A stretch of 54,794 nucleotides of DNA from an uncultured bacterium (GTDB lineage: Bacteria; Ratteibacteria; UBA8468; B48-G9; JAFGKM01). The notes beneath the pieces were generated by a model. The model saw only the letters and a program-made list of their open reading frames with translations, was not told where the DNA came from and ran no database searches. Each line of letters starts with the position of its first letter. Within the stretch, counting starts at the first letter, position 1. This document shows positions 33,829 to 50,960 of the stretch, in pieces. Position numbers and translations under genes: made by a program. The stretch spans positions 1 to 54,794 of the forward strand of contig CAYOYL010000057.1 of NCBI GenBank assembly GCA_964408175.1, in the 5' to 3' direction.

Positions 33829-34854
33829 TCAGTCCTGCGGGAACTGTTTAAAATAATCCACTTCTTCCAGCATCTTCCCTGTTCCCCTAACCACAGCGGT
33901 TAGTGGGTCATCAGGAAGGAACACCGGCAGTTTGGTTTCCTGCGATATGAGTTTATCAATCCCTTTCAGGAGCGCTCCTCCACCTGCAACGGCGACTCCT
34001 CCTTCAATAAGGTCACTGGACAATTCAGGAGGAGTCTCCTCAAGAATATCTCTTATTGAGTTGACTATCTGGGAAAGTGTATCTTTCAGTGCTTCTCTGA
34101 TTTCCTCAGAATTTACTTTGACCATTTTGGGAAGTCCCTCCACAAGACTTCTGCCATTCACATCCATCGTCAGTTCCTCCTCAAGGGGAAATGCCGAACC
34201 AATCTTAATCTTTATCTCCTCTGCAGTACGTTCTCCTATGAGAAGGTTATACTTCTTTTTCAGGTACTCAATAATTGCTTCATCCATTTCGTTACCAGCA
34301 ACCCTCAAACTTCTCGTAAGAACAATGCCTCCGAGAGAAATAATCGCCATTTCCGTTGTTCCACCACCTATGTCAAGGATAAAACTCCCTTGTGGCTCGG
34401 CCACCGGCAAACCAACTCCTATAGCCGCTGCCATAGGCTCTTCAACCAGGTGAACCACCCTTGCTCCGGCTTTTAGAGCAGTCTCTTTCACGGCTCTCCT
34501 TTCAACGCTGGTTATGCCGGAAGGAATAGCAATGACTATCCGTGGGGGCAGAATAAATCTATGCCTTGGGGTCTTGACCCTCATAATAAAATACCTCAGC
34601 ATAGATTCACAGGCCTCAAAATCAGCAATAACACCATCCTTCATCGGCTTCATCGCAACAATATTTGATGGTGTCTTCCCCAGCATCCTTTTTGCTTCGT
34701 TCCCGACAGCCACAACCTCTTTGGTAGTAAGATTTATCGTAACTATGGACGGCTCCATCAGGATAACTCCCTTTCCGTTGACAAATACACAGGTATTAGC
34801 CGTCCCCAGGTCAATACCCATGTCATTGGAAAAGAAACGCAAAAGTTTAACCAT
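33829..34854 (-). CDS. mreB: Rod shape-determining protein MreB
   Basis: FSNDMGIDLGTANT, the DIGGGTTE phosphate-2 motif, 341 aa. GGGAGAAG RBS. The start overlaps the upstream stop by 8 nt. Confidence 0.95.
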   Translation of the reverse strand: MVKLLRFFSNDMGIDLGTANTCVFVNGKGVILMEPSIVTINLTTKEVVAVGNEAKRMLGKTPSNIVAMKPMKDGVIADFEACESMLRYFIMRVKTPRHRFILPPRIVIAIPSGITSVERRAVKETALKAGARVVHLVEEPMAAAIGVGLPVAEPQGSFILDIGGGTTEMAIISLGGIVLTRSLRVAGNEMDEAIIEYLKKKYNLLIGERTAEEIKIKIGSAFPLEEELTMDVNGRSLVEGLPKMVKVNSEEIREALKDTLSQIVNSIRDILEETPPELSSDLIEGGVAVAGGGALLKGIDKLISQETKLPVFLPDDPLTAVVRGTGKMLEEVDYFKQFPQD

Positions 34855-36265
34855 GTTCTTCTCCCTTTTCTGCTTTAGTTCCTTTCTCCTCCAGAAGTTT
34901 TACAAAAATGTTTACTATCCCACTGTCAAATTGTATACCTGCCCATCTTTTCAGTTCGGAGACGGCCTCCTCCTTCATCATCCTTTTTCTGTATGGTCTC
35001 TCGGAAGTCATCGCACTATAGGCATCAGCAACAGCCAGGATTTTTGCAAAAATGGGTATATCTTCTCCTTTCAACCCTTTCGGATAGCCTTTCCCGTCAA
35101 TCCTTTCATGATGATATAAACAGGCATCTATCTCTCCCTCCCTCAGTCCCAGCGGCTCCAGTATTCTAACGGTCATCTCCGGATGTTGTTTGATAATACT
35201 CATCTCTTCTTCATTGAGAGGTCCGGGTTTTAAAAGTACCACATCCCTGATGCCTACCTTCCCAAGGTCGTGGAGATAAGACGCATTTCTTAAAATTTCA
35301 ATATCTCTGCCCGAAAACCCAAGTTGCTTACCAATAACAACTGAGTAGTAAGCAACCTGTTCGGAATGGCCCTTGGTATATGTATCCCTGGTCTCGAGGG
35401 AGTTAACAAGGGACCGTATGGAATTAAGATAAGAGTTTTTCACAACCTCAAAAAGAGTTGCATTCTCTACACCTATACCTACCTGTGTAGCAAATACCTC
35501 CAAAAATTTAATCTCCTCTTCTTTTATTTTCTTGTTTTCAGGAAATATTATACTGATAAATCCTATCTCCTTTTCTTTGCCGAAAAGGGGTATTATAACA
35601 GTCTCTGTCTCTGTTCCCGTGATGCGAGACTTCCTGTTAGCAAAAATATCCTGCATTTCCCCATGCTCATAACTGACAGGTAATTTTTTTCCCCTACCAT
35701 CTCTGGGAAAGCGCTTACGCAAAATAAAATTTCCATCTTCTTTAAAATAGACAGCCGCGCTTTCCGGCTGGAATATGTTATGAATTATGGCAACGACCTT
35801 CTCAATCAGTGAATCAAGGTTTGTTAGAGAAACAATTATCCTGTTCAGTTCCAGTATCGCTTCTACCATCTTTAACTTTGAAATCTCACCCGAAGGTTTA
35901 CCAACTTCCAGATTATTCTTTACAGTCTGAAGGAAATTCTGGATGTCGAATGGTTTAACAATAAAATCTGAAGCCCCGGATTTCAGGGCTTTCACGGCGT
36001 TTTCAACGGTGCCAAAACCTGTCATTACAACAACAGGTATATCTTTATCCTTTTCCCTCACTGCCGAGATAAAATCAAAACCATTAATCAAAGGCATCTG
36101 TATATCAAGAAGGATGAGGTCAAAGGTATCATTTCCCAGTTTATCTATACCCTCCCTGCCATCTGATGCTAAAGATACGTCATAACCTTCTCTTTCAAGA
36201 ATACGACTGACCAAATCTCTAATACCTACTTCGTCATCAACCACCAGAATTTTTTTTCTATTCAT
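34847..36265 (-). CDS. Response regulator with REC-GAF-HD-GYP architecture (putative c-di-GMP phosphodiesterase)
   Basis: REC (KILVVDDE, LILLDIQMP, VKPF), a central GAF-like region, then HDLGK and HHERIDGKGYPKGL. Confidence 0.85.
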   Translation of the reverse strand: MNRKKILVVDDEVGIRDLVSRILEREGYDVSLASDGREGIDKLGNDTFDLILLDIQMPLINGFDFISAVREKDKDIPVVVMTGFGTVENAVKALKSGASDFIVKPFDIQNFLQTVKNNLEVGKPSGEISKLKMVEAILELNRIIVSLTNLDSLIEKVVAIIHNIFQPESAAVYFKEDGNFILRKRFPRDGRGKKLPVSYEHGEMQDIFANRKSRITGTETETVIIPLFGKEKEIGFISIIFPENKKIKEEEIKFLEVFATQVGIGVENATLFEVVKNSYLNSIRSLVNSLETRDTYTKGHSEQVAYYSVVIGKQLGFSGRDIEILRNASYLHDLGKVGIRDVVLLKPGPLNEEEMSIIKQHPEMTVRILEPLGLREGEIDACLYHHERIDGKGYPKGLKGEDIPIFAKILAVADAYSAMTSERPYRKRMMKEEAVSELKRWAGIQFDSGIVNIFVKLLEEKGTKAEKGEEHG

Positions 36266-36327
36266 TTTTAATATTTGTTGTACCGATAAGACAGGTGAAC
36301 AACGCTACATAACAAAGTGCAGTATTA

Positions 36328-37674
36328 TCAAACAAGTTTATATTTCTGCATCTTATACCTTAAAATTCTCCTTGTAGTTTTAAGATGTTCCGCTGTTTTT
36401 GTCTGGTTCCCGCGATAACTTTCAATTACCTCTTTTATGAGCCGTTTTTCAAAACTTTCGACCGCCTCCTTGAGAGAGTAAACGTCCTGCCTGTGTGAAG
36501 TTTTCAATTCAACAGGCAGGTCATCCACATCTATTATAACCTTATTTCCCCTAAGAACCAAAATCCTCTCAATGATATTTTTAAGTTCTCTGACATTACC
36601 AGGCCAGTCATAATTGTATAGAACATCCAGAGCACTGTGTGAAAATTCTCTGGTCTTACAGAGAAATTGTTTGCTGAGAATATCAAGGTAGAAATCCACC
36701 AATAAACCTATATCTTCTCTTCTTTCCTGCAAAGGGGGGATATAAATGGGTATAACCCCCAGTCTATAAAACAGGTCATCCCTGAACCTTTTTTCTTTTA
36801 CCATATCTGGCAGAGACACAGAAGATGCAGAGATTATCCTTGCATCACTTTTAATTGTATTATTACCACCCAGCCTTGAAAACTCCTTCTCCTGTAAAAA
36901 CCTGAGCAGTTTAACCTGAACAGGCATGGGTATCTCACTAACTTCGTCAAAGAATATCGTACCCGAACCAGCGGTTTCAATCTTCCCTTTTTTACTCTTA
37001 AAAGCATTGGTAAATGCCCCTCTTTCATAACCAAATACTTCGCTTTCAAAAAGTCCTTCAGGGATTGCAGCGCAATGTACTGGAACAAAAGGGTCCCCTG
37101 CTCTCTTACCGTTTTCATGCATAAAACGGGCTACAAGTTCCTTCCCCACCCCAGTAGGTCCTGTCAGAAGAACGTTTGAATCCGTTGCCGCAACCTTCTT
37201 TCCCTCTTTCAGAACCCTTGCCATAACATCACTTTTATATACAATCCTGTCCACGGGATACTCACGGATAACCTCCTCCTTTAAGAAAGAAACCTGCCTT
37301 GACAGTTTGCCCGTCTTCAGAACATTTTCAATGAGCAGTTTCATCTCTTCCGCGTCAAAAGGCTTGGAAATATATTCACAGGCCCCTGCCTTCATAGCTT
37401 CAACCGCTGTTTTAATATGTGAAACAGCGGTTAACATTATGACAGGAACTTCGTCATCATTGTTTTTTATCGTTTTTAAAACCTCAATCCCGCCTATATC
37501 CGGCAGTATAATATCAAGAATAACAAGGTCTATGTTATTATCCTTGAACAGTTCAATAGCCTGATAACCGTTTTCAGCAAGAATAATCTTGTATTTCTCT
37601 TTCAGCAGAAATCTCAGAGATTCCCTGACTCCAGATTCATCATCAACAACAAGTATTTTATCCATTCTTTTCAC
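36328..37674 (-). CDS. Sigma-54-dependent response regulator (NtrC family: REC-AAA+-Fis HTH)
   Basis: REC (ILVVDDE, LVILDIILPD), Walker A GPTGVGKE, a GAFTGA-type loop (ERGAFTNA), and C-terminal HTH NQTKTAEHLKTTRRILRYK. Confidence 0.9.
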   Translation of the reverse strand: MKRMDKILVVDDESGVRESLRFLLKEKYKIILAENGYQAIELFKDNNIDLVILDIILPDIGGIEVLKTIKNNDDEVPVIMLTAVSHIKTAVEAMKAGACEYISKPFDAEEMKLLIENVLKTGKLSRQVSFLKEEVIREYPVDRIVYKSDVMARVLKEGKKVAATDSNVLLTGPTGVGKELVARFMHENGKRAGDPFVPVHCAAIPEGLFESEVFGYERGAFTNAFKSKKGKIETAGSGTIFFDEVSEIPMPVQVKLLRFLQEKEFSRLGGNNTIKSDARIISASSVSLPDMVKEKRFRDDLFYRLGVIPIYIPPLQERREDIGLLVDFYLDILSKQFLCKTREFSHSALDVLYNYDWPGNVRELKNIIERILVLRGNKVIIDVDDLPVELKTSHRQDVYSLKEAVESFEKRLIKEVIESYRGNQTKTAEHLKTTRRILRYKMQKYKLV

Positions 37675-39592
37675 CGTTTTTCGGAAGTGAGATAACCAGA
37701 TTTCTGGCAGATAGAGTTAGAACACATTTGAAACTACCGCCGTGGGACTCCAGAATTTTACGGGTGAGCACCATACCTATAGAAACAGGACTTCTGGTTT
37801 TAGAGTTAAAGGGGACAAAAAAGTCTTCAGAATCGGTCAGATTAATCCTGTTTCCATTTTCAGAGATGGTAACCTCAACATCTTTATCTGTATTCTCAAA
37901 ACAGATACGGGCCTCTCCAACTCCTGCAGTATCTTCATGTATGAAATCAAAGATGTACCCGATAGCCTCTTTGAACTTTTCAGGGTCAATAGGGACAAAA
38001 ACCCCGCTGCTTCCCTCAATATTAAACCTTAAACTGTCTCCCTTTTCTACCTCTTTTATTTTGCTGCGAAACAACTCTACTACATCAACCTCTACAGGCC
38101 TGAGTTCCATTGAATACGCAAGTTTGTTTATCCTGTCTATTATCTCATTTATCCTCTGCACCTCTCCCTGCATAACATCAGAAAATTTTGTCCTGAACTC
38201 CTCGTCGTTATATTTTAGAGGCAGCATCTGGGCAAATGTTTTTATTGCTACGAGGGGATTTTTAAGTTCATGAGAAAGACGGGAAGCAAGTAAATTCCAA
38301 TATCTATTCTTTTCCACCTCTTTCTCCTTATTTTCCATCTCTTTCACAAAGGTCAGGTCATGGAATATGGCAACAGCCCCTTTTCTCACTCCATCCCCGT
38401 TTTTTATAAGGTTTGTACTTAACCCAAGGATAATCCTGCTCGGCACATAGTTTATCTCCACCCTGTCGAATACCTCTCCGGAAATTAAACTTCTCCTGAT
38501 AAAATCTGCTATCTGGGACCCAACCTTTTCCACAGGTTTTCCCATAACCTCTTCAGACTTCAGCCCAAAAATAGTCTCTGCATAAGGATTAAATACCTCC
38601 ACCTTGCCCTCTGTGTCAACTGCTATAATTCCAATGGGGATATTTTTGAAAATTGATTCCTGAGAATCCTTGCGGAATGCTACCTCCCTGTAAAGAGACA
38701 GGTTGTCAAAGACGGTGGCAAGATAATCCATTGTTGTACTTAAAAAAGAGATGTCGGCAAAGGTGGTATCAACGCCAGTAAGTTTGTCACCTGCCAGAAA
38801 GACACCAATAAGTCTGCCGTCAAAGGTCCTGAGAGGAAAAGCAATGCGGCATTTCAAAATGTCCATGAAATTGTTGCAGTCAAAAGGGAGGTCTTTTTCG
38901 GTCGCAAGATTTAGTATGCGGTTTTTGCCCAGAAGCCACATTATCAAAGGATGACTGTGGGCGGCTTCAACCTTGCTTAAAATACTTTCCTCTATACCGA
39001 GAGAAGCAGAGGTTATAAAAGTCTCTTTTTCTTTCAGCAACAGGAGCATTTTGTTAAAATAGAACCTTCTTTTAAGTGTTTTCAATATCTCAACACCAGT
39101 TCTATCTATATCAGGAAAGTTTTCAGTTATTGTCTGGAAGAGTTCCTGAAAAAAATGCTCTCCGTTCTCACTTCTGTCAGTAATCTTGTTCATTCCCCTC
39201 ACGGATAGGTCTTCCCGCAAACGGATGTTCTCCTTCAAAAGTTTTTCTCTCTCAACGGCTTTATTGATAAGGTGCGTTATCCTTTCCGCAGAAAGTGGTT
39301 TCTCAACCATATCAAATACACCGGACCCAATTGCTTGCCTTGCAGCAGTACCAAAAGAAGAGACAATCTTTATCACCGTTAGAGTCGGGTCATACTCAAG
39401 CAGTCTTACCAGTAAATCTCTGGAATCCATGGTTAACTGAGAATCCAGAAAAATTGCTGTAGGTCTACTCTCTGTGATTGCTTTTAAAGCATTCACAGGC
39501 ATAACACCATCCACTATGAATTCTTTTCCCAGTATTGCCTTTAACGAAGAAGTGAGATCTTTATCCTCTGTTATCAAAAGTATGTAACCCAT
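37658..39592 (-). CDS. REC-GAF-PAS-HisKA protein with a degenerate ATP-binding (HATPase) domain
   Basis: Receiver-like N-terminus (ILLITEDKD, AIFLDSQL, VEKPL) and H-box LSHELKNPLVAIKTF. The N/G1/G2 boxes are replaced by FDFIHED, ENGNRI and SPVSIGM. Start set at MGYILL (39592, GGAGAAAGGAA upstream) rather than 39655. Confidence 0.75.
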   Translation of the reverse strand: MGYILLITEDKDLTSSLKAILGKEFIVDGVMPVNALKAITESRPTAIFLDSQLTMDSRDLLVRLLEYDPTLTVIKIVSSFGTAARQAIGSGVFDMVEKPLSAERITHLINKAVEREKLLKENIRLREDLSVRGMNKITDRSENGEHFFQELFQTITENFPDIDRTGVEILKTLKRRFYFNKMLLLLKEKETFITSASLGIEESILSKVEAAHSHPLIMWLLGKNRILNLATEKDLPFDCNNFMDILKCRIAFPLRTFDGRLIGVFLAGDKLTGVDTTFADISFLSTTMDYLATVFDNLSLYREVAFRKDSQESIFKNIPIGIIAVDTEGKVEVFNPYAETIFGLKSEEVMGKPVEKVGSQIADFIRRSLISGEVFDRVEINYVPSRIILGLSTNLIKNGDGVRKGAVAIFHDLTFVKEMENKEKEVEKNRYWNLLASRLSHELKNPLVAIKTFAQMLPLKYNDEEFRTKFSDVMQGEVQRINEIIDRINKLAYSMELRPVEVDVVELFRSKIKEVEKGDSLRFNIEGSSGVFVPIDPEKFKEAIGYIFDFIHEDTAGVGEARICFENTDKDVEVTISENGNRINLTDSEDFFVPFNSKTRSPVSIGMVLTRKILESHGGSFKCVLTLSARNLVISLPKNGEKNG

Positions 39593-42059
39593 TTCCTTTC
39601 TCCCCGTCAGTATGCAAAGGCAGTTCCACTGAAACGGTGGTACCCTCTCCTTCAATACTATCCACTTTCACAAAACCACCGTGTTCTTCTATTATTCTTG
39701 TCACTATGGACAGCCCCAGCCCTGTCCCCTTCTCCTTGGTAGTAAAAAAAGGCTCAAATATTTTATCTAAAAGGTCATGTCTAATCCCACATCCATTATC
39801 CTGTATCTTCACAACTGCACGTCCATCTTTCTTCTCTATATTAACATTTATGGCTCCTTTTGTATCTATTGACTGAGCACTGTTAATACAGACGTTCAGA
39901 AAAGCCTGCCTCAACTTACCCTCATCGCCCTTAAGAATAATCTTATCCGAACAGTAGTTTTCCTTTATCTCTATCTCTTTATCAGGGAATTGTCCGGACA
40001 ACAGAACAATAGTATTTCCCAACACATCTACAAGGTCAATTTCTTTCAATACAGGGCCTCTCGGCTTCGCAAAAACGAGTATCTGCTCCACCAGTGTATT
40101 TATCCTTTCAACCTCTTTTATGGTAAGCGCAGAAAATTTTTCACGGAACTCCCTGTCGTTATATTTCTCAGGCAGAAGGTGCGCGAATGTCTGTATTGAG
40201 ACAAGAGGGTTTTTTATTTCATGTGCTATCCCTGCCGCCATAATTCCCAGAGAGGCATATTTTTCCGCACGCTGCATTTCTTCTTCCAGTTTTTCTATAA
40301 GAGTAACGTCAGCAAAGATTATCTGGACACCTGCAAGGCTGCCGTCTCTATCCGAGAAAACTGAAGAACTTGCATTAAGAGAGATTTCAGATTCATCCTT
40401 TTTTATCTTAAACTGAAGATGTCTGATACCTTCCTTCTTTTCAATTGAATAAGCAAGAATTTTTTTTATTTCTTCAGGCAGGGTTTTACTAAAATGTTCG
40501 TGCTCAATCTGCAACTTCCCCAGACCTGTGATTCTTTCAGCCTCTTTATTAACCACAGTAACGGCTCCATTTTTATCTATGCCTATAACTCCTATGGGCA
40601 GGTTTTCAAGCAGAGACTCCTGATAAATCTTCCCCCTTTCAAGTTGTTCATAAAACAGGAAGTTTTGCAACTTAAGAGAAAGATAGTGAGAAAGTCTCGC
40701 AAAAATCTCTTCGTCCTGCGGACTGTAAAACCGGCCTGAAACCTTTTCTCCAAAACAAAGTATGCCAAATAGATGATTTTGTTCACCAAGTAAAGGAATC
40801 ACTATCTCGGACTCCAATGCATCCATCTCTTTGATGACCTCTAAATTCTCATCGGTTTGAATCCTCCTCTCAATTTCACCCTTTATTAAAGGTGAGTGTG
40901 TCCTGCGGATAAAGCCTTCTAACTGAGAGGGATAAAGTGACCCTTCAATATCAACAAATTCCTGGAGGTTATGCGAAATAGAAAAGATAATTTTTTTCTC
41001 GCCAGGCCCCAAAAAGTAGACCTTCCCGCTCGTTATCCCAACACTCTCAAGAATTATCTTCATGCACCTGCTAAGAAATACCTTTACATCTCCCACAGTA
41101 TAAAGAAGTTTCTCTAACCCCGCGAGGATATTTTCAGTTGAATATTCCAGATTAAAAACCCTGAAACTGACAAGGTCATTTATCTTCCTGCGGATGGGTT
41201 CAAACGCAAAGATGACAACCAGTATGGCAAGCGTCTCTTCCAGCAGGGAGCCCGGGGTAAGGTATGGAAATAACAACCACTTCAAGATAAAGAGCGATAG
41301 GTTATAGAGAAGAAAAATGGATAGGACAACAAAAGAGTAGGATAGAACTTTTTGCATCAGCACAGAGACGTCCAGAATCTTATACTTTGCTATACCATAT
41401 CCTATGATGCCGTTCATTATCACCACGCCTAAAGGACTGAACTGAGCAAGCAACTGTGTTTTTAAGATTATATGCAAAACAAAGTTACACAGAATCACAA
41501 AAATGAATCCAAAAAAACACCCTAAAAGTATATATTGGACCTCAGCGCGCGCCAGACCTTTTTTTATCTTCAGTTTCTTCAACAATACTGCAAAAGCGTA
41601 AGCCGCAACAGTTAAAAATAAAACAAAGTATACAAAGAAAGGCCACCCATAGGTAGCATGCGGCAGGTTAACCGCCTCACCCTTTTTTACTACCACCTCT
41701 TTGACAAAAGAAGGCAGGAAGCCGAGAGAAAAATTGACGGCTGTTAATACCGCCATCAGTAAAAACCCCTTCTTCTTAAGAAAATCTACCTTCTTCTCCC
41801 CAATTGTATATACCAGAGATAGAAGAGATAAGGTAACAGTACTGCCCGCAATAAATGAACCCCTTATCCATATCTCTGCCATTAACGGGGTACTCGCATT
41901 GACAATTAACAGTATAACTGTATTCCATATCCATATATCTATACCGAGATAAGAAAAAACGCGGTTGGAAAGCCGCTTTGGATTACTCTTATAGACAAGG
42001 TAGATAATAAGTGCGTTGAACAAGAGGGTAAATATCAAAACTACCGTCGTAATATTCAT
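39561..42059 (-). CDS. Membrane sensor histidine kinase (polytopic N-domain, GAF, PAS, HisKA, HATPase)
   Basis: ~300 aa of hydrophobic helices, H-box AHEIKNPLVSIQTF, N-box LNVCINSAQ, G1 DNGCGI, G2 GTGLGLSIV. Confidence 0.9.
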   Translation of the reverse strand: MNITTVVLIFTLLFNALIIYLVYKSNPKRLSNRVFSYLGIDIWIWNTVILLIVNASTPLMAEIWIRGSFIAGSTVTLSLLSLVYTIGEKKVDFLKKKGFLLMAVLTAVNFSLGFLPSFVKEVVVKKGEAVNLPHATYGWPFFVYFVLFLTVAAYAFAVLLKKLKIKKGLARAEVQYILLGCFFGFIFVILCNFVLHIILKTQLLAQFSPLGVVIMNGIIGYGIAKYKILDVSVLMQKVLSYSFVVLSIFLLYNLSLFILKWLLFPYLTPGSLLEETLAILVVIFAFEPIRRKINDLVSFRVFNLEYSTENILAGLEKLLYTVGDVKVFLSRCMKIILESVGITSGKVYFLGPGEKKIIFSISHNLQEFVDIEGSLYPSQLEGFIRRTHSPLIKGEIERRIQTDENLEVIKEMDALESEIVIPLLGEQNHLFGILCFGEKVSGRFYSPQDEEIFARLSHYLSLKLQNFLFYEQLERGKIYQESLLENLPIGVIGIDKNGAVTVVNKEAERITGLGKLQIEHEHFSKTLPEEIKKILAYSIEKKEGIRHLQFKIKKDESEISLNASSSVFSDRDGSLAGVQIIFADVTLIEKLEEEMQRAEKYASLGIMAAGIAHEIKNPLVSIQTFAHLLPEKYNDREFREKFSALTIKEVERINTLVEQILVFAKPRGPVLKEIDLVDVLGNTIVLLSGQFPDKEIEIKENYCSDKIILKGDEGKLRQAFLNVCINSAQSIDTKGAINVNIEKKDGRAVVKIQDNGCGIRHDLLDKIFEPFFTTKEKGTGLGLSIVTRIIEEHGGFVKVDSIEGEGTTVSVELPLHTDGEKGNGLHTFDNRG

Positions 42060-43282: not shown

Positions 43283-43393
43283 TTAGGCCTTCCCGTTAAT
43301 AAAATCTATCTCATCCTCCAGCCCTTTCCTGTTGCCTGAGTAAAAGAAACACCTGTGTCTCTCTAAAAATTCATTCAGTGAACTGAACCTGCT
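43283..43393 (-). pseudogene. Orphaned 3' end (36 codons plus stop) of the IS-interrupted radical SAM gene
   Basis: Removing 43402-45670 in silico joins this segment in frame to 45671-47228. It reads SRFSSLNEFLERHRCFFYSGNRKGLEDEIDFINGKA and ends at a TAA 3 nt before the KS ATG. Confidence 0.7.
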
Positions 43394-43467
43394 GTGTTTG
43401 TCAATGATTTCTGATTAAGGCCACAGAGTAGTACCCACCTACCAAAACAAACATTTTTCAAGAAGCC

Positions 43468-43496
43468 TTGACAGCGGGGCGGGATTCTGGTATAAT
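43468..43496 (+). promoter_or_regulatory. Consensus sigma-70 promoter inside the IS left end (TTGACA-N17-TATAAT)
   Basis: TTGACA at 43468-43473 and TATAAT at 43491-43496, 35 nt upstream of the orfA ATG. Confidence 0.65.
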
Positions 43497-43531
43497 CCTA
43501 AGTGATTAATAATATAGAACAGGCGGAAAAG

Positions 43532-43966
43532 ATGAAAACACTAAGCGAGACAAGGAAAAGGATAGTAGATTTGCAGAAGGAGAAATACCGGATAGAGAAG
43601 AGTTTGCTTCGTCCGCTGCCGATGGTGCCGTATGCCCTGATAGAACATTATGGGGAATGCGGCAAGAAGGTCTGCCGTTGCCACGGTGGGCAGTTACACG
43701 GTCCATACTGGTATTTAAGCCAGCATAGGGACGGCAAGACCCGCAACATCTACGTACCGAAAGAAAAAGCAGAAAAGATACAGGTATTGGCAGACAGGTA
43801 CAAACAATACGAAGGCAAACTGACACAGTTACGGGCGATACAGAAAGAGATAATGGATTTGTTGAAGGAGATAGAGAAAAGCGCATATGTACCGCCATCC
43901 AAGATGAACCTTAAACGACCAGCGGAGAGGAAATGGAAAAGAAAGAACAAGCAAGGGAAACCGTAA
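43532..43966 (+). CDS. IS accessory protein (small Cys/His-containing, basic)
   Basis: ECGKKVCRCHGGQLHGPYWYL is a zinc-ribbon-like motif often seen upstream of transposase genes. Start set at ATG 43532 rather than GTG 43502. Confidence 0.6.
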   Translation: MKTLSETRKRIVDLQKEKYRIEKSLLRPLPMVPYALIEHYGECGKKVCRCHGGQLHGPYWYLSQHRDGKTRNIYVPKEKAEKIQVLADRYKQYEGKLTQLRAIQKEIMDLLKEIEKSAYVPPSKMNLKRPAERKWKRKNKQGKP

Positions 43967-45444
43967 TCGGGATAATGCCTTATGACCGTGAGAAAGTATT
44001 AAGCAAACTGAAGCAGAAGAAATACGACGACATATTTATTCGGGACAGGGGAAGGCTGGATGATTTTGTAGGGTTTTTGTACCAGACAGGGGTACTGGGG
44101 CTGTTTGACGGGATAGACAGCAGGATGGAGAGAAAGCCTGAGATACCCCGGCAGTTTTTGCATTACTGCATATCCTTAAAACCGGTGGTGGACAGCGCCA
44201 GCATAAATCAACTGCCCGGCAGACTGCTTGAGGATACTGATAGTCTGCGGACGCTGGGGTTCACGATGGTAGCGATGGAAAAAGGGTTTTCGGTGAAGAA
44301 CAAAAACGGGAACAATGTGCCGGTAAATATAAACGCGTTTTATGATGAACTGGCACGGCTGCCGGAAACAGAGAGCAAGAAGTTTTTCACCTCGGGTGTA
44401 GAGTTATTGGACAAGAAACGGTTTTTATCAAAGAAGTCCGGGGTATACGCGTTGGACGGCGTGAAGTTGCTGATTACCGGCGATAAGAAATACGAGAATT
44501 ACGGAAAGATAACAATAGAGGACAAAAATGGCAAACGGGTAAAGGAAAAAGGGTATAAACTGGTGTTCCTGCAAAGGGTAGATGGCGATGACCATTATAT
44601 AGTTGCGGCTAAGTTGATCCCGTTAAACCAGCAGGAGATAACGGTAGCAGAAGAACTGGTTGAAGAAGCGCTTTGCGTGCTGGGTGAAAACAGCATAAAA
44701 ACACTCCTGATAGACAGAGGGTTTCTTTCAGGTTCGTTTTTTGATTATCTGGGCGGTAAGGGGATTGATTTTATCTGCCCGACAAAAGATACATTACACC
44801 TTACCCGGCATATGCAGGGGCTGCACCGCGCAGGCGAAGGGGTTAAGACAACACTTGCCGACGGTACGGTATTGGCAGGATATAACTGCCTGATACCGAT
44901 GGACGGCTGCAAGAGGAAAATCAACGGAGTATTGATAATCAAACAGGGTAACAAGGCGCGCAAGAAGGTAATAGAAGGTAACGAGTTCGGATTCCTTACC
45001 AGTTTGCCTACCGGACAGAATCAACAGATTGAAAAGGTTTATAACCTTTACAGCCGGCGCTGGAAGATTGAGGTTAACGGCAACAGGGAACTAAAGAGCC
45101 AGTGGTATATCAACAAATTTCCCTCGCAGAAGTGGAACGGTTTATGCACGCATATTTACTTTACCCTGTTTATGTTCAACGTGGTGGCTGCCTTTAAAAG
45201 CAAGAAAGGACGTGCATTAACGGAAAAAGGGATGTTGTCCATTCGGAATAAGTATTTCACCTCTTGGAGTAAAACCCACACGGTCAATGTAATTGCCGGC
45301 GGATACTGCGCCACTTTCCCGTTTAAAGATTTCGTCCAAATCTTCGGACTGCCGCCGCCCTCAGGCAAGTATGAGAATTCCTTCTGGGTAACCAAACCTG
45401 ACGGAAGGAAAGAACTCTGGTACGTAGAAAACTCCAAACTGTAG
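43933..45444 (+). CDS. DDE transposase (IS4 / IS1634-like)
   Basis: YSRRWKIEVNGNRELK fits the IS4-type Y-x2-R-x3-E...K signature. 503 aa, lying between the inverted repeats. It has its own ATG after GGAGAGG. Confidence 0.8.
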   Translation: MEKKEQARETVIGIMPYDREKVLSKLKQKKYDDIFIRDRGRLDDFVGFLYQTGVLGLFDGIDSRMERKPEIPRQFLHYCISLKPVVDSASINQLPGRLLEDTDSLRTLGFTMVAMEKGFSVKNKNGNNVPVNINAFYDELARLPETESKKFFTSGVELLDKKRFLSKKSGVYALDGVKLLITGDKKYENYGKITIEDKNGKRVKEKGYKLVFLQRVDGDDHYIVAAKLIPLNQQEITVAEELVEEALCVLGENSIKTLLIDRGFLSGSFFDYLGGKGIDFICPTKDTLHLTRHMQGLHRAGEGVKTTLADGTVLAGYNCLIPMDGCKRKINGVLIIKQGNKARKKVIEGNEFGFLTSLPTGQNQQIEKVYNLYSRRWKIEVNGNRELKSQWYINKFPSQKWNGLCTHIYFTLFMFNVVAAFKSKKGRALTEKGMLSIRNKYFTSWSKTHTVNVIAGGYCATFPFKDFVQIFGLPPPSGKYENSFWVTKPDGRKELWYVENSKL

Positions 45445-45517
45445 AGCCGGTATGTCTACAAGAATCCTCCATACGCATGTTTTGGTGAATATTGTGTCTT
45501 TTGCACCCTCACCCGGA

Positions 45518-45540
45518 CCCTCTCCCTTCAAGGGAGAGGG
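45518..45540. repeat. Hairpin repeat CCCTCTCCC-TTCAA-GGGAGAGGG inside the IS right arm
   Basis: 9-10 bp stem preceded by CACCCTCACCC. Same motif style as the hairpins at 9119, 13888 and 13968. Confidence 0.6.
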
Positions 45541-45656
45541 ACAAAGACAATTTACGTCTCTTCCTTATCTGTAATATCTGGGAAAATATTGCCCCTGGTA
45601 TGAAAATGTTCGCCTGCTCTCTTTTTTTCTGGTTTTCAGGTATCCTTAATCAGAAA

Positions 45657-47228
45657 TTATTGGTGTTTGTATAACAGATATGCCTCATCTGGCACTGATG
45701 TTATAATACCCTCTTTCTGGATATCCCTCTGAAACCTTTCGGTTTCCCGGGCAAACTCCTTAAAAGACATCCCGTTTATTTTATAAGGCAGGGGTTCCCA
45801 GTAACTTGGAGGGAAGAGACTCTTTATCTGGTAGGTCATCATTCTCAAAGGATAAGCCTTTCTGTCCTCCATTGTAAAGTTAAACCTTTCCGGCGTTTTA
45901 AACCACTGAGTCCCAGGATATATACCTGAGAACTGTACAAGTGCTGAGTCAGGTCTTACCTCTCTTATAAAATTTATCGTTTTTTCCCTGCTCTTTTCGG
46001 TTTCAAAGGGAGCAGGATATATCAAACTGACCACCGTGAATATACCCGCAGACCTACATCTCTGCAGAACCTTTTTAGCCGATTCAATGTCAATCTTCTT
46101 GTTCATACCCTCTTTCAGTATCTCTTCATCAGCGGACTCTATCCCGAAAAAAATTGATTCGCAGCCGGACTGCTTCAATAGATTAAAGTCTGTATCAGTA
46201 TCAGTCACGAGACCAAAACTTGAATACCTGACGCTGATTTTTTCATCAATTATCCTTTTCGCCACCTCCATCATAAGACCTGAAGGGGTACTTGAACCTG
46301 CATACCTGAAAAGGTTGAATCCATACCTTTCCCTCCCATGCTTTATCTCCTCTATTATCCTGTCAGCAGATTTTTCTCTCCTCTTACCGCTCTTTACCGG
46401 ATGTATGCAAAAATAACAACTGTTGGGACACCCGCGACTCTCGTCCAGAACGAGCATCTTCAGTTTCTTATCTATGTTAAGGTAGACATCCGGCGTATAA
46501 ACGGGCAGGGGCAGTTTATCAAGTTTATCTACATACTTTCTCCTGGTCTTTACAATAGTTCCATCCCCATTTTTAAAAATAATGTTCGGTATATCTTCCA
46601 GTCTCTCTTTGCCCTGTACATAATTGTACAGCAGTTTTATTGTCTCCTCCCCTTCTCCATAGCACAGCGCGTCAAAAAAACCTCCGACCTTGTAAATCTC
46701 CTGTCCAAAAATGTCCACCTGTGGTCCGCCACCGATAATCTTCAGTTCAGGATACCTCTCTTTAAGATATCTACCTGCTTTAATGGACCACATAAAACCG
46801 TCCCCTGCCCACAGTTTAAAACCGATGCATCCTATATTTTCCTCCTTTATAAGGTCAGCAAGATACACATTAAATCTTTCGGAGAAAACATTCTTCCTCT
46901 TTTCAAGAGAGTTGCTCACTGACCTAAGCCGTATTATATCCAGCAGAGAGGGTTTCTTCCCCTCAATAAACACCTTATGCGAAAACTTTCCAAGAAATCC
47001 TGATATTCTGTCTGTAAAAACCTCTGAAAAGAGAGAGGGCTGGTTTATATCCAGTATCTTCACCTTACAACCTTCTTCTATCAAAGAAGCGGCGAGAATA
47101 GCCAGTCCATTATCGGGGATAAAACTGGAGATTATGTTGGGAAGCCCTGCAGCAGATACCAGCAAAAAATTTTCTTTCATAGTTTGTATTATACAAAAAT
47201 GTACAGTCCCCTGCAAATTTTTTCTCAC
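45657..47228 (-). CDS. B12-binding-domain radical SAM protein, 3' end clipped by the IS
   Basis: The N-terminal Rossmann-like B12-binding region (LKIIGGGPQ) is followed by ESRGCPNSCYFCIHP (CxxxCxxC). The last sense codon (CAA) and the TAA stop lie inside the IS right inverted repeat. An alternative start at 47180 (MKENF) is possible. Confidence 0.8.
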   Translation of the reverse strand: MRKNLQGTVHFCIIQTMKENFLLVSAAGLPNIISSFIPDNGLAILAASLIEEGCKVKILDINQPSLFSEVFTDRISGFLGKFSHKVFIEGKKPSLLDIIRLRSVSNSLEKRKNVFSERFNVYLADLIKEENIGCIGFKLWAGDGFMWSIKAGRYLKERYPELKIIGGGPQVDIFGQEIYKVGGFFDALCYGEGEETIKLLYNYVQGKERLEDIPNIIFKNGDGTIVKTRRKYVDKLDKLPLPVYTPDVYLNIDKKLKMLVLDESRGCPNSCYFCIHPVKSGKRREKSADRIIEEIKHGRERYGFNLFRYAGSSTPSGLMMEVAKRIIDEKISVRYSSFGLVTDTDTDFNLLKQSGCESIFFGIESADEEILKEGMNKKIDIESAKKVLQRCRSAGIFTVVSLIYPAPFETEKSREKTINFIREVRPDSALVQFSGIYPGTQWFKTPERFNFTMEDRKAYPLRMMTYQIKSLFPPSYWEPLPYKINGMSFKEFARETERFQRDIQKEGIITSVPDEAYLLYKHQ

Positions 47229-47316: not shown

Positions 47317-47371
47317 TTGAGGTTATTATTAATTTATACAGGCTGACATTTTTCAGAGATATTCTGGCAGT

Positions 47372-47387
47372 TGGCACACTTTTTGCA
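47372..47387 (+). promoter_or_regulatory. Sigma-54 promoter (TGGCAC-N5-TTGCA)
   Basis: TGGCACACTTTTTGCA matches the -24/-12 consensus exactly, with correct GG-to-GC spacing. It sits ~27 nt upstream of the FadL-like ATG, with GGAGG in between. Confidence 0.75.
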
Positions 47388-47413
47388 CATAATATAATGG
47401 AGGTGCGACCAAA

Positions 47414-48625
47414 ATGGGAAAAAAATGTAAATTGCTTTTTTTGTGGAGGTTGGTATCTATTATTATGTTTTTGTTTTTCAATGTTTCTTTAATCCTTGCG
47501 CAGGGATTTAAAAATCCGCCGGAAGGAATCTCTGCCCTTTCGCAGGCAGGTGCCTTTATCGCACAGTGCGATGATGCCTCAGCCGTCTCCCACAACCCTG
47601 CAGGATTAGCACAGATTGAGGGAGAGCAGATAATGTTTGGCAGTGTATTCCTTTATCCAACCACCTCATATAAAAACGGGGGGAGTGAAGATGCAGTATC
47701 CAACATGGCCTACCTGCCCTTTATCTATTATGCAACAAATATGGGCAGAGAAAATCTAAGATTCGGCATAGGTCTCTCCTCACCATACGGACAGGCAACA
47801 GAGTGGAGTGACGACGTTATAAAAAATTGGGGTGTCAATCTTATAACCGGGACATACACCATCCCTTATTACTCTTCAATGCAGACGATTAACGCCTCCC
47901 CTGTCCTTGCATATAAATTCACTCCGCAGTTTTCTGCCGGTCTTGGGCTGAATCTTTACTACAGCAAACTGGGCGTAAATTATTTAACTCTGGCAGATAT
48001 GCCCGCCAAGATAGAGACGGCTGGTACAGGACTCGGAGGCATACTCGGGCTGCTGTACAAAGAAAAAAACTACAGCATCGGGTTCAACTATAAAAGCGGT
48101 TTTGACATTGACTATGACGGGAACTTCAAGGTTCCGGGAGTTTTGAAAACGGATGCATCATTAGAGATGAAATACCCGCAGATAGCAGGAATCGGTCTTG
48201 CCGTCTATCCTAACCAGAAGATGAAGATTGAGTTTGATGCGGAATGGACGGACTATTCCTGTTTAGAAAAAATCCCGGTTGACATAACAGGTGTTACTTC
48301 CTACGATGTTCCAAAAAAGTGGAAGGATTGCTATATGTTTTCACTCGGGACAGAATACAAAAAATCTGAGAGTATAAAATTAAGAGGCGGCATTGCCTAC
48401 CTCACAAACCCTGTCCCTGATTCAACGTGGGACCCGAGCCTGCCGGCCTCTGACAGTATCGTGGTTGTAGTGGGAGGTGAATCCCTAAGCAGATTTGGCA
48501 GTTTCAGCCTCTCTCTCGGCGCAAACATTTACAGGGAAAGGAAGTTAGAAAAAGGAGAATTATACGATGGGAAATACAGGTCAACAGGATACTTTTGCAC
48601 ACTCGGATACAAAAAATCGTTTTAG
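47414..48625 (+). CDS. Outer-membrane hydrophobic-compound channel (FadL/TodX/OmpP1 family)
   Basis: Signal peptide, then the N-terminal hatch motif GFKNPPEGISALSQAGAFIAQCDDASAVSHNPAGLA. Alternating beta-strand pattern and a C-terminal aromatic residue (KKSF). Confidence 0.8.
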   Translation: MGKKCKLLFLWRLVSIIMFLFFNVSLILAQGFKNPPEGISALSQAGAFIAQCDDASAVSHNPAGLAQIEGEQIMFGSVFLYPTTSYKNGGSEDAVSNMAYLPFIYYATNMGRENLRFGIGLSSPYGQATEWSDDVIKNWGVNLITGTYTIPYYSSMQTINASPVLAYKFTPQFSAGLGLNLYYSKLGVNYLTLADMPAKIETAGTGLGGILGLLYKEKNYSIGFNYKSGFDIDYDGNFKVPGVLKTDASLEMKYPQIAGIGLAVYPNQKMKIEFDAEWTDYSCLEKIPVDITGVTSYDVPKKWKDCYMFSLGTEYKKSESIKLRGGIAYLTNPVPDSTWDPSLPASDSIVVVVGGESLSRFGSFSLSLGANIYRERKLEKGELYDGKYRSTGYFCTLGYKKSF

Positions 48626-49748
48626 TACTGATGATGTAAAAGAAACCATTCTGGTCATTGATGATGAACTGGGACCGAGAGAATCTCTGAGGATGCTGTT
48701 CAAGGATGACTACCATGTTATTACCGTAGAAAACGGAGATGAAGGCATTGCAGCCCTGAAAGAAAACAATCCAGATGTGGTCATTCTTGACCTTAAGATG
48801 CCCGGGAAAAACGGTATTGAAACATTTGAAGATATAAGAGACATTGATGAAAAGGTCCCCGTAATAATACTGACAGGCTATGGGGATATGGATGCTGCAA
48901 AAAAAGCGATACACCTGGGTGCTCTTGAGTTTATAAACAAACCCTTTGATATAAAAGAGATGCGGAGTATTGTAAGAGAAGCCTGTGAAAAAATATCTAT
49001 TGAAAAACGCTCGGAGAGGTTGATTTATCAACTGAATACACTGAACAACAGCCTGAAGGAACGGATGGAACAGCTTGAAAATATGGCGACAATAGGACAG
49101 TTTTCTGCAGAAGTTATACACGAGATTAACAATATGCTTACGGTTATTTACGGATATGCTCAGATTCTTATGAGTGAGATAGACAAGGGCAGCCTGCAGA
49201 ACGGGAATAAAAAATATATAAGCATTATAGAGAATGAGATAAAGCGGTGCAGAAACATAACAAAAAGCGTGATTGAACTGGCAAGGACAAAGATGGATAA
49301 AAAAGATGTCAATATCAACAGTATTATAGATAAAATAGTGGAACTGTTTGAAAACTCCAACATCGCAAAAGAGGTAAGGTTCATAACTGAATACGACAGA
49401 AGTTTACCCGACATCAAGGCAGACCCAAACCAGATACATCAGGCAATAATCAATGTCGTGCTCAACAGCATTCAGGCAATAGACTCAGATGGTCAGATTG
49501 TCATAAAAACCTCCATTAATGGAACCAGCCTGTCTGTTTCTATAAAAGACAACGGCAGGGGTATGACCGAGGAAACAATCAGTAGAATAACCGAGCCTTA
49601 TTTTACAAACAACAAAAAGGATGGAACAGGACTGGGACTTTCCATAACAAACAGGGTAGTAAAAAACCATAACGGCAGAATAGAAATCAGAAGTGAACTG
49701 AGCAAAGGGACTGAATTTATTATCTACCTACCTCTTACGGAGGTATGA
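48567..49748 (+). CDS. REC-HisKA-HATPase hybrid histidine kinase
   Basis: REC (ILVIDDE, VVILDLKMPG, INKPF), H-box EVIHEINNMLTVI, N-box VVLNSIQA, G1 DNGRGM, G2 GTGLGLSI. AAGGAG RBS. Overlaps the porin gene by 59 nt. Confidence 0.85.
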   Translation: MGNTGQQDTFAHSDTKNRFSTDDVKETILVIDDELGPRESLRMLFKDDYHVITVENGDEGIAALKENNPDVVILDLKMPGKNGIETFEDIRDIDEKVPVIILTGYGDMDAAKKAIHLGALEFINKPFDIKEMRSIVREACEKISIEKRSERLIYQLNTLNNSLKERMEQLENMATIGQFSAEVIHEINNMLTVIYGYAQILMSEIDKGSLQNGNKKYISIIENEIKRCRNITKSVIELARTKMDKKDVNINSIIDKIVELFENSNIAKEVRFITEYDRSLPDIKADPNQIHQAIINVVLNSIQAIDSDGQIVIKTSINGTSLSVSIKDNGRGMTEETISRITEPYFTNNKKDGTGLGLSITNRVVKNHNGRIEIRSELSKGTEFIIYLPLTEV

Positions 49749-50960
49749 GTTGAGTATTCCCTGTTGATGCCTGTATTTATTTACCGTCCTGACAGAAATT
49801 TTTATACCATCCTTTGTAAGTTTTTTAACAATCTGTCTGTCAGAAAGAGGTTTCCCTTCCTTCCACAGTATATCTTTTATCCTGTCAATAATAAAGTGCT
49901 TGCTTATAGAATCTCCCACGCTCCCTGAGAAAAAACTTCTCATTTTCATAAATCCTGCAGGTGTTTCCAAATACTTTCTGTTAACCGCGCGGCTTATGGT
50001 AGAAATACTCACGCCCCTTCTCTCCGCTATATCTTTCTCCCTTAAAGGTAAAAGGCTTCCACCCTCAAGATACTTCTTCTGATATTCCACAATCTCCTGA
50101 AAGACATCCGTGAGAAACCTGTGCCTCTCGGAAAGAATCCTCAAAAGAGTTCTTGCCTGCTCCAGTTTCTTCCTGAGAAATCTACGTTCTCTGGCAGAAA
50201 TCAACGGATTTTCAGCCTCCTTCTCGTACAGGGCATTTATCTTGAGAAGCGGATACATCTTCTCATCAAGGTAAACCCTGAAGTGCCCCCTTTTTTTAAC
50301 CACCCTTCCCTCTGGCATTATATAACGGGCAGTCTTCTTAAATAGACCTCTCAGGGGTGCGGAAGTAAATTTTTTTAGATTCTCTATTTCCTTCCTGACA
50401 TCAGAAACGTCAATGTGCAGACCGCCGCTTATTTTCTTGTGTTCTCTCTTTACAACTGCCTGCCAGTAGTCCCTTACAATCAGGTAAAGGATTGAGTCCT
50501 TATCTAAATATCTCTCAATCTGTAAAAGCAAAGACTCCTGCAGGTCTCTTGCACCAAGTCCTGCAGGCTCAAGAGACTGGACAATCTTTAAAGCATCTTC
50601 AACCTTCCTTTCTCCGGTTCCCAAAACCCTGACAATCTCGGAAAGAGGCTTTCTAAGGTATCCGTCTTCATCAAGGTTTTCTATTATGTACTCCCCTATT
50701 TTTAACATCTCTTTTGAATCCGTTGAAAGACGCAGATTGTGTACCAACTGGTCAAAATATGCATTGTCATCAGGAACGTCAGAGGCTACAAATCCTGTCT
50801 CTTTCAACTTCTCAAACTCCAGAAAGGGGTTTGACTCAGCCTGCTTCTTTACAAAATCCACCACCTCAAAAAACGGCATGTTCACAAGACTCAGGAATAA
50901 CTGCTGCCTCGGAGCAAGCAGCAGTCTGTGTTGAAGTTTTGTTTCTACCTTAATCTGCAT
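49728..50960 (-). CDS. rpoN: RNA polymerase sigma-54 factor
   Basis: Region I MQIKVETKLQHRLLLAPRQQLFLSL, a C-terminal HTH, and the RpoN box ISVRTVNKYR. Start set at 50960 (GGAGG 7 nt upstream). ~410 aa, so region II is short. Confidence 0.9.
   Translation of the reverse strand: MQIKVETKLQHRLLLAPRQQLFLSLVNMPFFEVVDFVKKQAESNPFLEFEKLKETGFVASDVPDDNAYFDQLVHNLRLSTDSKEMLKIGEYIIENLDEDGYLRKPLSEIVRVLGTGERKVEDALKIVQSLEPAGLGARDLQESLLLQIERYLDKDSILYLIVRDYWQAVVKREHKKISGGLHIDVSDVRKEIENLKKFTSAPLRGLFKKTARYIMPEGRVVKKRGHFRVYLDEKMYPLLKINALYEKEAENPLISARERRFLRKKLEQARTLLRILSERHRFLTDVFQEIVEYQKKYLEGGSLLPLREKDIAERRGVSISTISRAVNRKYLETPAGFMKMRSFFSGSVGDSISKHFIIDRIKDILWKEGKPLSDRQIVKKLTKDGIKISVRTVNKYRHQQGILNSYLRKR

Follow-up and report, generated by a model that had tools for sequence, protein, structure and literature searches.

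In the cqsA–cqsS–LuxO, rpfF–rpfC–rpfG and phcBSR systems, the synthase of a lipid signal is encoded beside a polytopic sensor kinase. The 54.8-kb stretch of DNA analysed here (the window; contig CAYOYL010000057.1 of an uncultured Ratteibacteria bacterium) carries genes for a B12-binding radical S-adenosylmethionine enzyme (rSAM), a FabF-like ketosynthase (KS), a polytopic sensor histidine kinase (HK1), a pseudokinase (HK2), an NtrC-type sigma-54 activator and a response regulator with receiver (REC), GAF and HD-GYP domains, together with those for a FadL/TodX-family outer-membrane channel, a REC-HisKA-HATPase kinase (REC-kinase) and RpoN. The region represents a cassette that is widespread and, as yet, undescribed; we read it, with about even confidence, as a self-contained unit that makes and senses a lipid-derived signal and has outputs through sigma-54 and cyclic di-GMP (c-di-GMP). 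By analogy, its signal logic appears comparable to that of Cqs/LuxO, Rpf and Phc, with every component drawn from a different family.

CqsA/CqsS–LuxO of Vibrio and LqsA/LqsS/LqsR of Legionella resemble the cassette, as we read it, in placing a synthase that uses acyl thioesters beside a polytopic, loop-poor kinase, and the Vibrio output runs likewise through an NtrC-type sigma-54 activator, LuxO. However, where the cassette has the rSAM and the KS, CqsA is a pyridoxal phosphate-dependent acyl-CoA transferase; LuxU takes part in the Vibrio relay, and the NtrC-type protein of the cassette scores 312.7 against a LuxO cutoff of 800; and the Cqs and Lqs systems lack the FadL channel, the pseudokinase and the HD-GYP protein of the Omnitrophota-type cassette. 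RpfF–RpfC–RpfG of Xanthomonas shares the logic of a fatty-acid signal, a multi-transmembrane kinase and a REC-HD-GYP regulator that degrades c-di-GMP, an activity predicted here. The likeness to the Rpf/diffusible signal factor circuit drawn in an initial annotation of this DNA thus holds for the logic and the REC-HD-GYP architecture, and extends to no other Rpf component. RpfF is a crotonase and RpfC a hybrid kinase of HisKA-HATPase-REC-HPt type, and neither a crotonase nor an HPt domain was found among the cassette genes in Pfam and NCBIfam searches; Rpf, in turn, has no sigma-54 branch, and HD-GYP is only a lineage-specific accessory of the cassette. PhcBSRQ of Ralstonia places an enzyme that uses SAM on a fatty-acid-synthesis intermediate in one operon with a membrane kinase, and its receiver fused to a kinase-like domain recalls the REC-kinase and HK2. 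PhcB is, however, a classical methyltransferase, and the Phc system, found in proteobacteria only, has no KS, B12-dependent rSAM or sigma-54 component.

Other described systems share the enzymes or the sensor. In the anammox 'ladderane' clusters the B12-dependent rSAM Kuste2803 lies beside Kuste2805, a FabB/F paralogue with altered active-site residues (PMC2649909); these clusters carry an acyl carrier protein (ACP), FabZ, FabG and other fatty-acid-synthesis genes and no kinases, whereas the cassette has kinases and no ACP. Clusters labelled 'ladderane' by antiSMASH have been reported in metagenome-assembled genomes (MAGs) of Omnitrophota and Verrucomicrobiota (PMC9902471), and these automated labels may include the rSAM–KS pair, as an unconfirmed candidate. 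DesK/DesR–Des of Bacillus, like the cassette as we read it, sets a multi-transmembrane kinase that senses within the membrane beside the gene of a lipid-modifying enzyme. DesK, however, belongs to the HisKA_3 kinases and works with a NarL-type regulator, and the Des enzyme is the regulated target on a separate transcript; there is a single kinase, and neither sigma-54 nor c-di-GMP forms an output. HpnI and HpnJ of the hopanoid side-chain pathway pair a lipid glycosyltransferase with a class-B rSAM, as do rSAM homologues of the Brocadiia, whereas the window holds no glycosyltransferase and its rSAM is partnered by the KS.

Genes were assigned from the listing of open reading frames (ORFs) and from profile searches against Pfam and NCBIfam, which recovered all nine module genes and their domains as initially annotated. 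A scan of species-representative genomes seeded with the rSAM returned 80 loci, tagged by BLASTP with the window domains as queries, and the same neighbours were found around rSAM homologues of 41–68% identity. In the full-context subset, 29 loci flanked by 8 kb or more on each side, the KS is present in 22, all with at least two histidine-kinase genes, and the seven loci without a KS have no kinase gene or one. A reciprocal scan of metagenome contigs, seeded with a 10-sequence alignment of the seven-transmembrane (7TM) domain of HK1 and limited in reach to Omnitrophota-type relatives, gave 22 loci, and the KS lies immediately upstream in all 20 that have upstream sequence. The conserved core consists of the rSAM, the KS, the 7TM kinase and an HK2-like kinase, usually with the REC-kinase. 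It was seen in Omnitrophota, Ratteibacteria, TA06, Elusimicrobia/Endomicrobiales and one Chlamydiota-labelled MAG, and also in Verrucomicrobiota, Auribacterota, Armatimonadota and Zipacnadia, with flanking genes that differ between lineages. Its order (arrowheads give gene direction; HK, histidine kinase) is REC-HK< FadL< rSAM> KS> 7TM-HK> HK2> NtrC> HD-GYP> in the Omnitrophota type, rSAM> REC-HK< HK2< 7TM-HK< KS< in Armatimonadota and Zipacnadia, NtrC> KS> rSAM> rSAM> in Elusimicrobia, 7TM-HK> KS> rSAM> 7TM-HK> HK2> NtrC> in Auribacterota and rSAM> KS> HK> HK2> REC-HD-GYP> FadL> in locus L043. Such reciprocal conservation across phyla and gene orders indicates that the adjacency was selected and is not incidental; on this comparative evidence the gene set is a real, selected unit, and the absence of a conserved neighbourhood in related genomes, which the initial annotation had named as grounds for abandoning its hypothesis, is not what the scans returned.

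The conservation is not uniform over the module. Across 83 loci, many on contigs that end early, FadL was counted in 36, NtrC in 21, HD-GYP in 16 and rpoN in 18, and each of them is missing from entire lineages. No FadL, NtrC or HD-GYP occurs in the cassettes of Armatimonadota and Zipacnadia, and FadL is also absent from those of Auribacterota and of L019 and L020, in which the KS, rSAM and kinases persist. The earlier proposal of an rSAM, KS, FadL and HD-GYP set was thus upheld for the rSAM–KS–kinase core, while FadL, NtrC, HD-GYP and rpoN turned out to be lineage-variable accessories. HD-GYP occurs in three positions, namely after NtrC, as a split REC and HD-GYP pair beside FadL (L005, L037) and after HK2 (L043), and this recurrence argues for a functional tie to the cassette where it is present. 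One Zipacnadia MAG holds two cassettes (L071, L082); duplicated 7TM kinases or rSAM genes inside single cassettes, or two cassettes per genome, were observed in L071/L082, L007 and L068. Full-text searches of the literature that was accessible found no account of the cassette, in keeping with the initial view of the combination as undescribed, and a 2026 review of B12-dependent rSAM enzymes makes no mention of lipids or ketosynthases.

The KS (42056–43279, minus strand) has the N- and C-terminal domains of a thiolase-fold ketoacyl synthase (PF00109, 168.5 bits; PF02801, 74.1 bits), matches the FabF structure 4ls5 at 3e-94 in a PDB sequence search and is about 45% identical to true FabFs, with the same fold. 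It scores 399.1 bits against TIGR03150 (FabF/KAS II), under the equivalog cutoff of 493.75, and its active site is formed by C165, H298 and N335, that is, Cys-His-Asn in place of Cys-His-His. An assignment as FabF or KAS II was rejected on this score and on the missing Cys-His-His triad. The IG-N-PYS of the KS aligns with TG-H-LLG of Bacillus subtilis FabF, so that the second catalytic His is an Asn; the His of KGHIG was considered as the catalytic His and rejected, being displaced and clade-specific in the alignment of B. subtilis FabF with 50 orthologues. In all of about 50 aligned KSs of the clusters, the Cys and the first His are conserved and the second His is Asn or Gln. Cys-His-Asn/Gln was likewise found in 103 of the 120 nearest database homologues, and canonical Cys-His-His FabFs appear only at 47% identity or less. 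The window KS reads HAPSD where FabF has HGTST and has lost the DAYHxT loop; across the clusters, HAPSD or a variant of it stands for HGTST, the gating Phe varies, and the DAYHxT loop is either altered or lost. By these residues the KS is a dedicated non-FabF paralogue, and a housekeeping lipid pathway with incidental adjacency was rejected on that ground. To our knowledge, no enzyme that combines a FabF fold with a Cys-His-Asn site has been characterised. KAS III enzymes use Asn in the place of the second His in malonyl decarboxylation. In FabB/F, both histidines are reported to be indispensable for that decarboxylation (PMC2649909).

The rSAM (45657–47228, minus strand; likely start, the ATG at 47180) combines a B12-binding domain (PF02310, 40.9 bits, cutoff 32.1) with a Radical_SAM domain (PF04055, 82.4 bits), and the cysteines of its CxxxCxxC motif (CPNSCYFC; C251, C255 and C258) are invariant among homologues, as in a class-B (cobalamin-binding) enzyme. 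Its family is large, comes from uncultivated lineages and consists of proteins of about 545 aa. No NCBIfam family cutoff was reached: the second-best match, HpnJ (TIGR03471), gave 111.8 bits against a cutoff of 577.6, the ladderane-type lipid rSAM model TIGR04072 gave 76.3 against 360, and ApyD and rSAM_ocin_1 gave 108 and 103 bits. With scores under the curated cutoffs, identities as a ladderane-type or HpnJ enzyme were rejected. A profile search of the PDB returned only generic class-B methyltransferases (MgmA 9ccb, 1e-16; CysS; TokK). In Woesearchaeota, Methanosarcinales and Phycisphaerae, rSAM homologues are translationally coupled to FeeM/LuxI-like N-acyl synthases instead of a KS, and the partners in Brocadiia are an HpnI-like lipid glycosyltransferase, a SPASM rSAM, a hexapeptide transferase and DUF362 (N-acyl-synthase and glycosyltransferase partner loci: L008, L009, L073, L074, L079, L083; L059, L060, L064, L070, L072, L087). 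Because rSAM homologues elsewhere pair with acyl or lipid enzymes, a lipid or acyl substrate is favoured. The first gene of the operon, rSAM, is probably translated from a leaderless mRNA, since an extended −10 element, TGTATAAT, lies only 5–10 nt before its start and no Shine–Dalgarno sequence is present (47181–47217); the same upstream arrangement was found in L001, L002, L014, L017, L025 and L067.

HK1 (39561–42059, minus strand) carries HisKA_7TM, GAF-like, PAS, HisKA and HATPase domains and has about 8–9 hydrophobic segments with short loops; its isolated 7TM domain matched no NCBIfam model. HK2 (37658–39655, minus strand), with a weak or degenerate REC, a PAS, a HisKA and a degenerate HATPase domain, is paralogous to HK1 and has no 7TM domain; the two are 29% identical over 395 aa, and their DHp helices about 75% identical. 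HK2 keeps the His (SHELKNPL), lacks the Asn of the N box and reads ENGNRI at G1 and PVSIGM at G2, and its HATPase_c score of 21.9 bits is under the cutoff of 26.4, so that it does not qualify as a canonical histidine kinase. Because these ATP-binding boxes are degenerate, HK2 is, by its motifs, a pseudokinase. Degeneracy of the N, G1 and G2 boxes characterises the Omnitrophota and Armatimonadota/Zipacnadia clades, intermediate clades having canonical ones, and the acceptor Asp of the receiver is kept in the Omnitrophota type and lost in Armatimonadota. The NtrC-type protein (36328–37674, minus strand) has the REC, sigma-54 AAA+ and HTH_8 domains of an enhancer-binding protein (PF00072, 105.5 bits; PF00158, 209.2; PF02954, 45.6). 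Its sigma-54 contact loop reads GAFTNA against the GAFTGA of the class, with the GAFT core kept and a change at the fifth residue, and orthologues have GAFT[G/N/D]A or GSFTGA. No NCBIfam cutoff was reached (AtoC, 451/714; PrsR of the PEP-CTERM system, 368.7/502.6; NtrC, 366.5/558.6; LuxO, as above), and membership in PrsK/PrsR, LuxO or AtoS/AtoC was rejected. The REC-GAF-HD-GYP protein (34847–36265, minus strand) contains an HD_5 domain (PF13487, 117.6 bits) with YLHDLGK and HHERIDGKGYP, in agreement with the HD and HHExxDGxGYP motifs, and is a predicted c-di-GMP phosphodiesterase.

Gene junctions overlap by 4 to about 30 nt (4 nt between the KS stop and the HK1 start), with the exception of a 62-nt gap from NtrC to HD-GYP. 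This packing leaves no room for an ACP or tailoring genes, and by the gene content of the window the cassette encodes no ACP, reductase, dehydratase or thioesterase. An Rfam scan found no cobalamin, c-di-GMP or other riboswitch in the module. The HD-GYP stop overlaps the start of mreB by 8 nt, and mreC, mreD, PBP2 and rodA follow on the same strand (29875–34854). In L031 and L107, HD-GYP and mreB have been relocated jointly to the other side of the cassette. A tie between the c-di-GMP output and the cell-elongation operon may thus exist.

The FadL-family protein (47414–48625, plus strand) has a signal peptide and a FadL/Toluene_X domain (PF03349, 149.6 bits; gathering score, 29.7) and is no equivalog of Escherichia coli FadL (67.2 against a cutoff of 585). 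The ORF of the REC-kinase (48567–49748, plus strand), its conserved partner, overlaps the FadL end, and rpoN (49728–51014, minus strand) lies next to it in convergent orientation, as first annotated. RpoN scores 301.8 bits against TIGR02395 (cutoff, 277.35), and its AID, CBD and DBD Pfam domains are all present. The textbook sigma-54 promoter initially assigned to the FadL and REC-kinase genes proved to be the sole exact match to the −24/−12 consensus TGGCAC-N5-TTGC in the window (TGGCACACTTTTTGC; 47372–47386, plus strand), 28 nt before the FadL ATG. In all NtrC-bearing loci with FadL, a sigma-54 promoter with at most one mismatch is located 10–130 nt upstream of FadL. Five complete sister-clade loci (L001, L002, L013, L014 and L028) have no ntrC, adjacent rpoN or FadL sigma-54 promoter and retain FadL, the enzymes, the kinases and HD-GYP. 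Because the presence of the promoter matches that of NtrC, the FadL operon is, from these comparisons, the best-supported NtrC target, and the proposed sigma-54 branch gains support, with NtrC and rpoN themselves varying between lineages. In Elusimicrobia the sigma-54 promoter precedes the KS, and in Brocadiia the rSAM. With the sister clade in view, sigma-54 may mainly serve the cassette in these small genomes, and the joint loss of ntrC, rpoN and the promoter is a clean natural experiment for following the dismantling of a sigma-54 regulon when genomes are small.

Inspection of intergenic alignments by eye, followed by a pattern count, identified a palindrome, TGTACA-N4-TGTACA. It is enriched in NtrC-type loci, at positions about 100 and 20 nt before the start of rSAM, and the NtrC-less clade lacks it. 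The copy in the window (TATACAAAAATGTACA; 47190–47205, unstranded) has one mismatch, overlaps the sigma-70-type promoter of rSAM, TTTGCA-18-TATAAT (47217–47188), and lies about 180 bp from the sigma-54 promoter. From this distribution we infer a candidate NtrC binding site, which would be the upstream activating sequence of the divergent sigma-54 promoter and probably also a candidate operator on the rSAM promoter. Similar palindromes, one of them an exact match, occur 87 nt apart inside the rSAM coding region (46615–46630 and 46702–46717). They were not counted as regulatory sites, 46702–46717 encoding the invariant VDIFGQ motif. They nevertheless decay at synonymous positions in NtrC-less relatives, and the one that encodes VDIFGQ is eroded by synonymous changes in relatives with the same amino acids and no NtrC (L013, L014 and L028), which hints at intragenic regulator sites.

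In the window, rSAM is separated from the KS by an IS4-like insertion sequence (IS) of 2261 bp (43402–45662, plus strand). The IS has 19-nt terminal inverted repeats (95%), an 8-bp target duplication, GTGTTTGT (43394–43401 and 45663–45670), a DUF6788 ORF (43502–43966), a DDE transposase (43933–45444) and its own perfect sigma-70 promoter, TTGACA-17-TATAAT with a TG extension (43468–43496). The repeats, the duplication and a DDE_Tnp_1 match (PF01609, 57.2 bits) place it in the IS4 family; the NCBIfam IS4_1 score of the transposase, 79.5, is under the cutoff of 115. The rSAM ORF is cut 38 codons before its end, and its present stop codon lies inside the right inverted repeat. The displaced 3' end (43283–43401, minus strand) holds the last 37 codons and the stop, including the left copy of the duplication. 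This tail reads ...SRFSSLNEFLERHRCFFYSGNRKGLEDEIDFINGKA up to its stop codon (43283–43396, minus strand) and aligns with the C-termini of the 545-aa homologues P0002 and P0005; AGA and then the ATG of the KS follow, and the original 3-nt gap between the two genes, as first deduced, is therefore still legible. The truncated allele was found on contigs from at least five independent metagenome samples, indicating fixation in the population and not an assembly error, and no insertion at the same position was found in any of the related loci compared. Short assemblies break inside the IS, which suggests that it is probably multi-copy in the genome. In the source genome the insertion has removed the last 38 residues of rSAM and parted the KS and kinases from their promoter, so that the synthase half is probably impaired. 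With a fixed IS disrupting rSAM, the window copy of the cassette may be non-functional.

Elsewhere in the window, three consecutive large minus-strand ORFs (17275–24402; 624, 805 and 913 aa) have no Pfam match at E ≤ 1e-5. Within 13466–14367, a 6S RNA gene (14188–14367, 94 bits) is neighboured by the tRNA-Tyr and tRNA-Gly genes and is located upstream of those for trigger factor, ClpP and Lon. The elongasome operon ends, after rodA, with a second, unrelated radical SAM protein, which is of the Radical_SAM_N2 type (28226–29869).

We propose the following mechanism for an intact cassette of the type in the window. Since genes for an ACP, a reductase and a dehydratase are all lacking in the cassette, the KS may draw on fatty-acid synthesis for an acyl thioester, which the KS and rSAM would convert into a modified hydrophobic small molecule. 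The molecule would partition into membranes and be sensed there by the loop-poor HK1, which would follow the KS directly in translation of a shared mRNA. Under modulation by HK2, its paralogue that is blind to ATP, HK1 may phosphorylate both the NtrC-type activator and the REC-GAF-HD-GYP protein, these being the presumed partners; the latter would lower c-di-GMP. NtrC may bind the palindrome overlapping the rSAM promoter and, with sigma-54, activate the divergent FadL/REC-kinase operon, which would raise the permeability of the outer membrane to the molecule and add a second kinase input. FadL homologues help the uptake of long-chain N-acyl-homoserine lactones in Sinorhizobium. The most discriminating facts behind this reading as a signal cassette are the link between a minimal two-enzyme pathway and a membrane-embedded sensor, which is obligate, reciprocal and kept through rearrangement, the non-housekeeping active site of the KS, the lipid and acyl partners of the rSAM family elsewhere, and an outer-membrane channel for hydrophobic molecules that depends on the regulator. 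The sigma-54 and c-di-GMP links of the module are credible; the signal chemistry, the diffusibility and the role of FadL are what we infer from the genes. Only tentatively, as a possibility, do we extend the proposal to a hitherto unrecognised, quorum-sensing-like class of cell–cell signalling that would be widespread among uncultivated phyla of diderms (Omnitrophota, Ratteibacteria, Elusimicrobia, Verrucomicrobiota, Armatimonadota, Zipacnadia and Auribacterota), in which an autoinducer made by a B12-dependent rSAM and a Cys-His-Asn KS would be read by a HisKA_7TM kinase, with archaeal and Planctomycetes versions built on an N-acyl amino acid scaffold.

Several points weigh against a signal cassette. 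The acyl-derived product, its exit from the cell and HK1 as its receptor are putative. Among characterised enzymes, those nearest to the rSAM are class-B methyltransferases of a generic kind, including some with protein substrates, and the KS, given its Cys-His-Asn site in a FabF fold, may be non-condensing. Export or uptake through FadL would not be essential to the core, being missing in Armatimonadota/Zipacnadia. Solo receptors are frequent in true quorum-sensing families, and no solo 7TM receptor without a synthase was found in the 7TM-seeded scan, which covered the Omnitrophota-type clade only. The FadL sigma-54 site in the window can also be read as a sigma-70 promoter, TTGGCA-16-TATAAT; this alternative was rejected as particular to the window and not conserved in related loci. 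The Omnitrophota cassette running into mreBCD–pbp2–rodA could, moreover, mean a role in the cell envelope and not in communication.

The main rival, membrane-lipid remodelling under two-component control with a DesK/Des-like logic, is doubtful but the most serious. Here the rSAM would add a branch or other modification to the growing acyl-ACP, the KS would elongate it into bulk membrane fatty acids, the 7TM kinase would sense the physical state of the membrane and tune expression, and the linkage to FadL and mreBCD would reflect envelope homeostasis. A loop-poor polytopic HK1 is typical of intramembrane sensing, a B12-dependent rSAM stands beside a divergent FabB/F in the anammox lipid clusters and a Brocadiia homologue of the rSAM beside an HpnI-like lipid glycosyltransferase; in Omnitrophota and Ratteibacteria the elongasome operon adjoins the cassette or overlaps with it, and the lack of solo receptors in the 7TM-seeded scan of Omnitrophota-type relatives fits as well. 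However, five signalling genes for two enzymes are a large excess, and the linkage of the KS to at least two kinases, obligate in every phylum and order examined, would be odd if the pathway made bulk lipid. The enzymes share their translation with the kinases and are not their regulated target, the NtrC-dependent promoter drives FadL and not the enzymes in most lineages, and the change of the second His to Asn, with the loss of the gating Phe, speaks against ordinary chain elongation.

FadL/TodX channels are often found beside two-component systems in hydrocarbon pathways. A second rival, which we regard as unlikely, supposes TodX/TodST-like sensing of an exogenous hydrophobic compound, such as host or prey lipids, that FadL imports, the kinases detect and the KS and rSAM convert, and pictures the takers as small-celled, possibly host-dependent bacteria. 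That the FadL and REC-kinase operon is the sigma-54/NtrC target, and that the cassette has no ACP, would suit such a role. Yet FadL is absent from the Armatimonadota, Zipacnadia, Auribacterota, L019 and L020 cassettes in which the KS, rSAM and kinases stay, no catabolic genes (CoA ligase, beta-oxidation) are linked, and the condensing-enzyme fold is anabolic. Modification of a protein or peptide by the rSAM, for example C-methylation of a kinase or of the KS, with the KS as an acyltransferase or scaffold, is a very improbable explanation: the similarities to MgmA, rSAM_ocin_1 and ApyD are among its best and point that way, but the NCBIfam scores are far under the family cutoffs, there is neither a precursor-peptide ORF nor room for one, and the rSAM partners in other lineages are lipid or acyl enzymes. 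That a housekeeping FabF and an unrelated rSAM merely happen to adjoin the regulator block, the other outcome against which the initial annotation had set its hypothesis, can be dismissed as already refuted despite the FabF-like identity and fold of the KS, given its non-canonical site and sub-cutoff score and the reciprocal association kept across many phyla in rearranged orders.

With two enzymes, one receptor and a sigma-54 promoter that could serve as a reporter, a signal cassette of this size would be testable in a heterologous host without cultivation. If the reading is true, it would assign a function to three uncharacterised protein families, namely to a large clade of class-B rSAM enzymes, to a FabF-derived KS with a KAS III-like triad and to the HisKA_7TM sensor domain, and it would mean chemical communication or lipid sensing in phyla with almost no experimentally known signalling biology.

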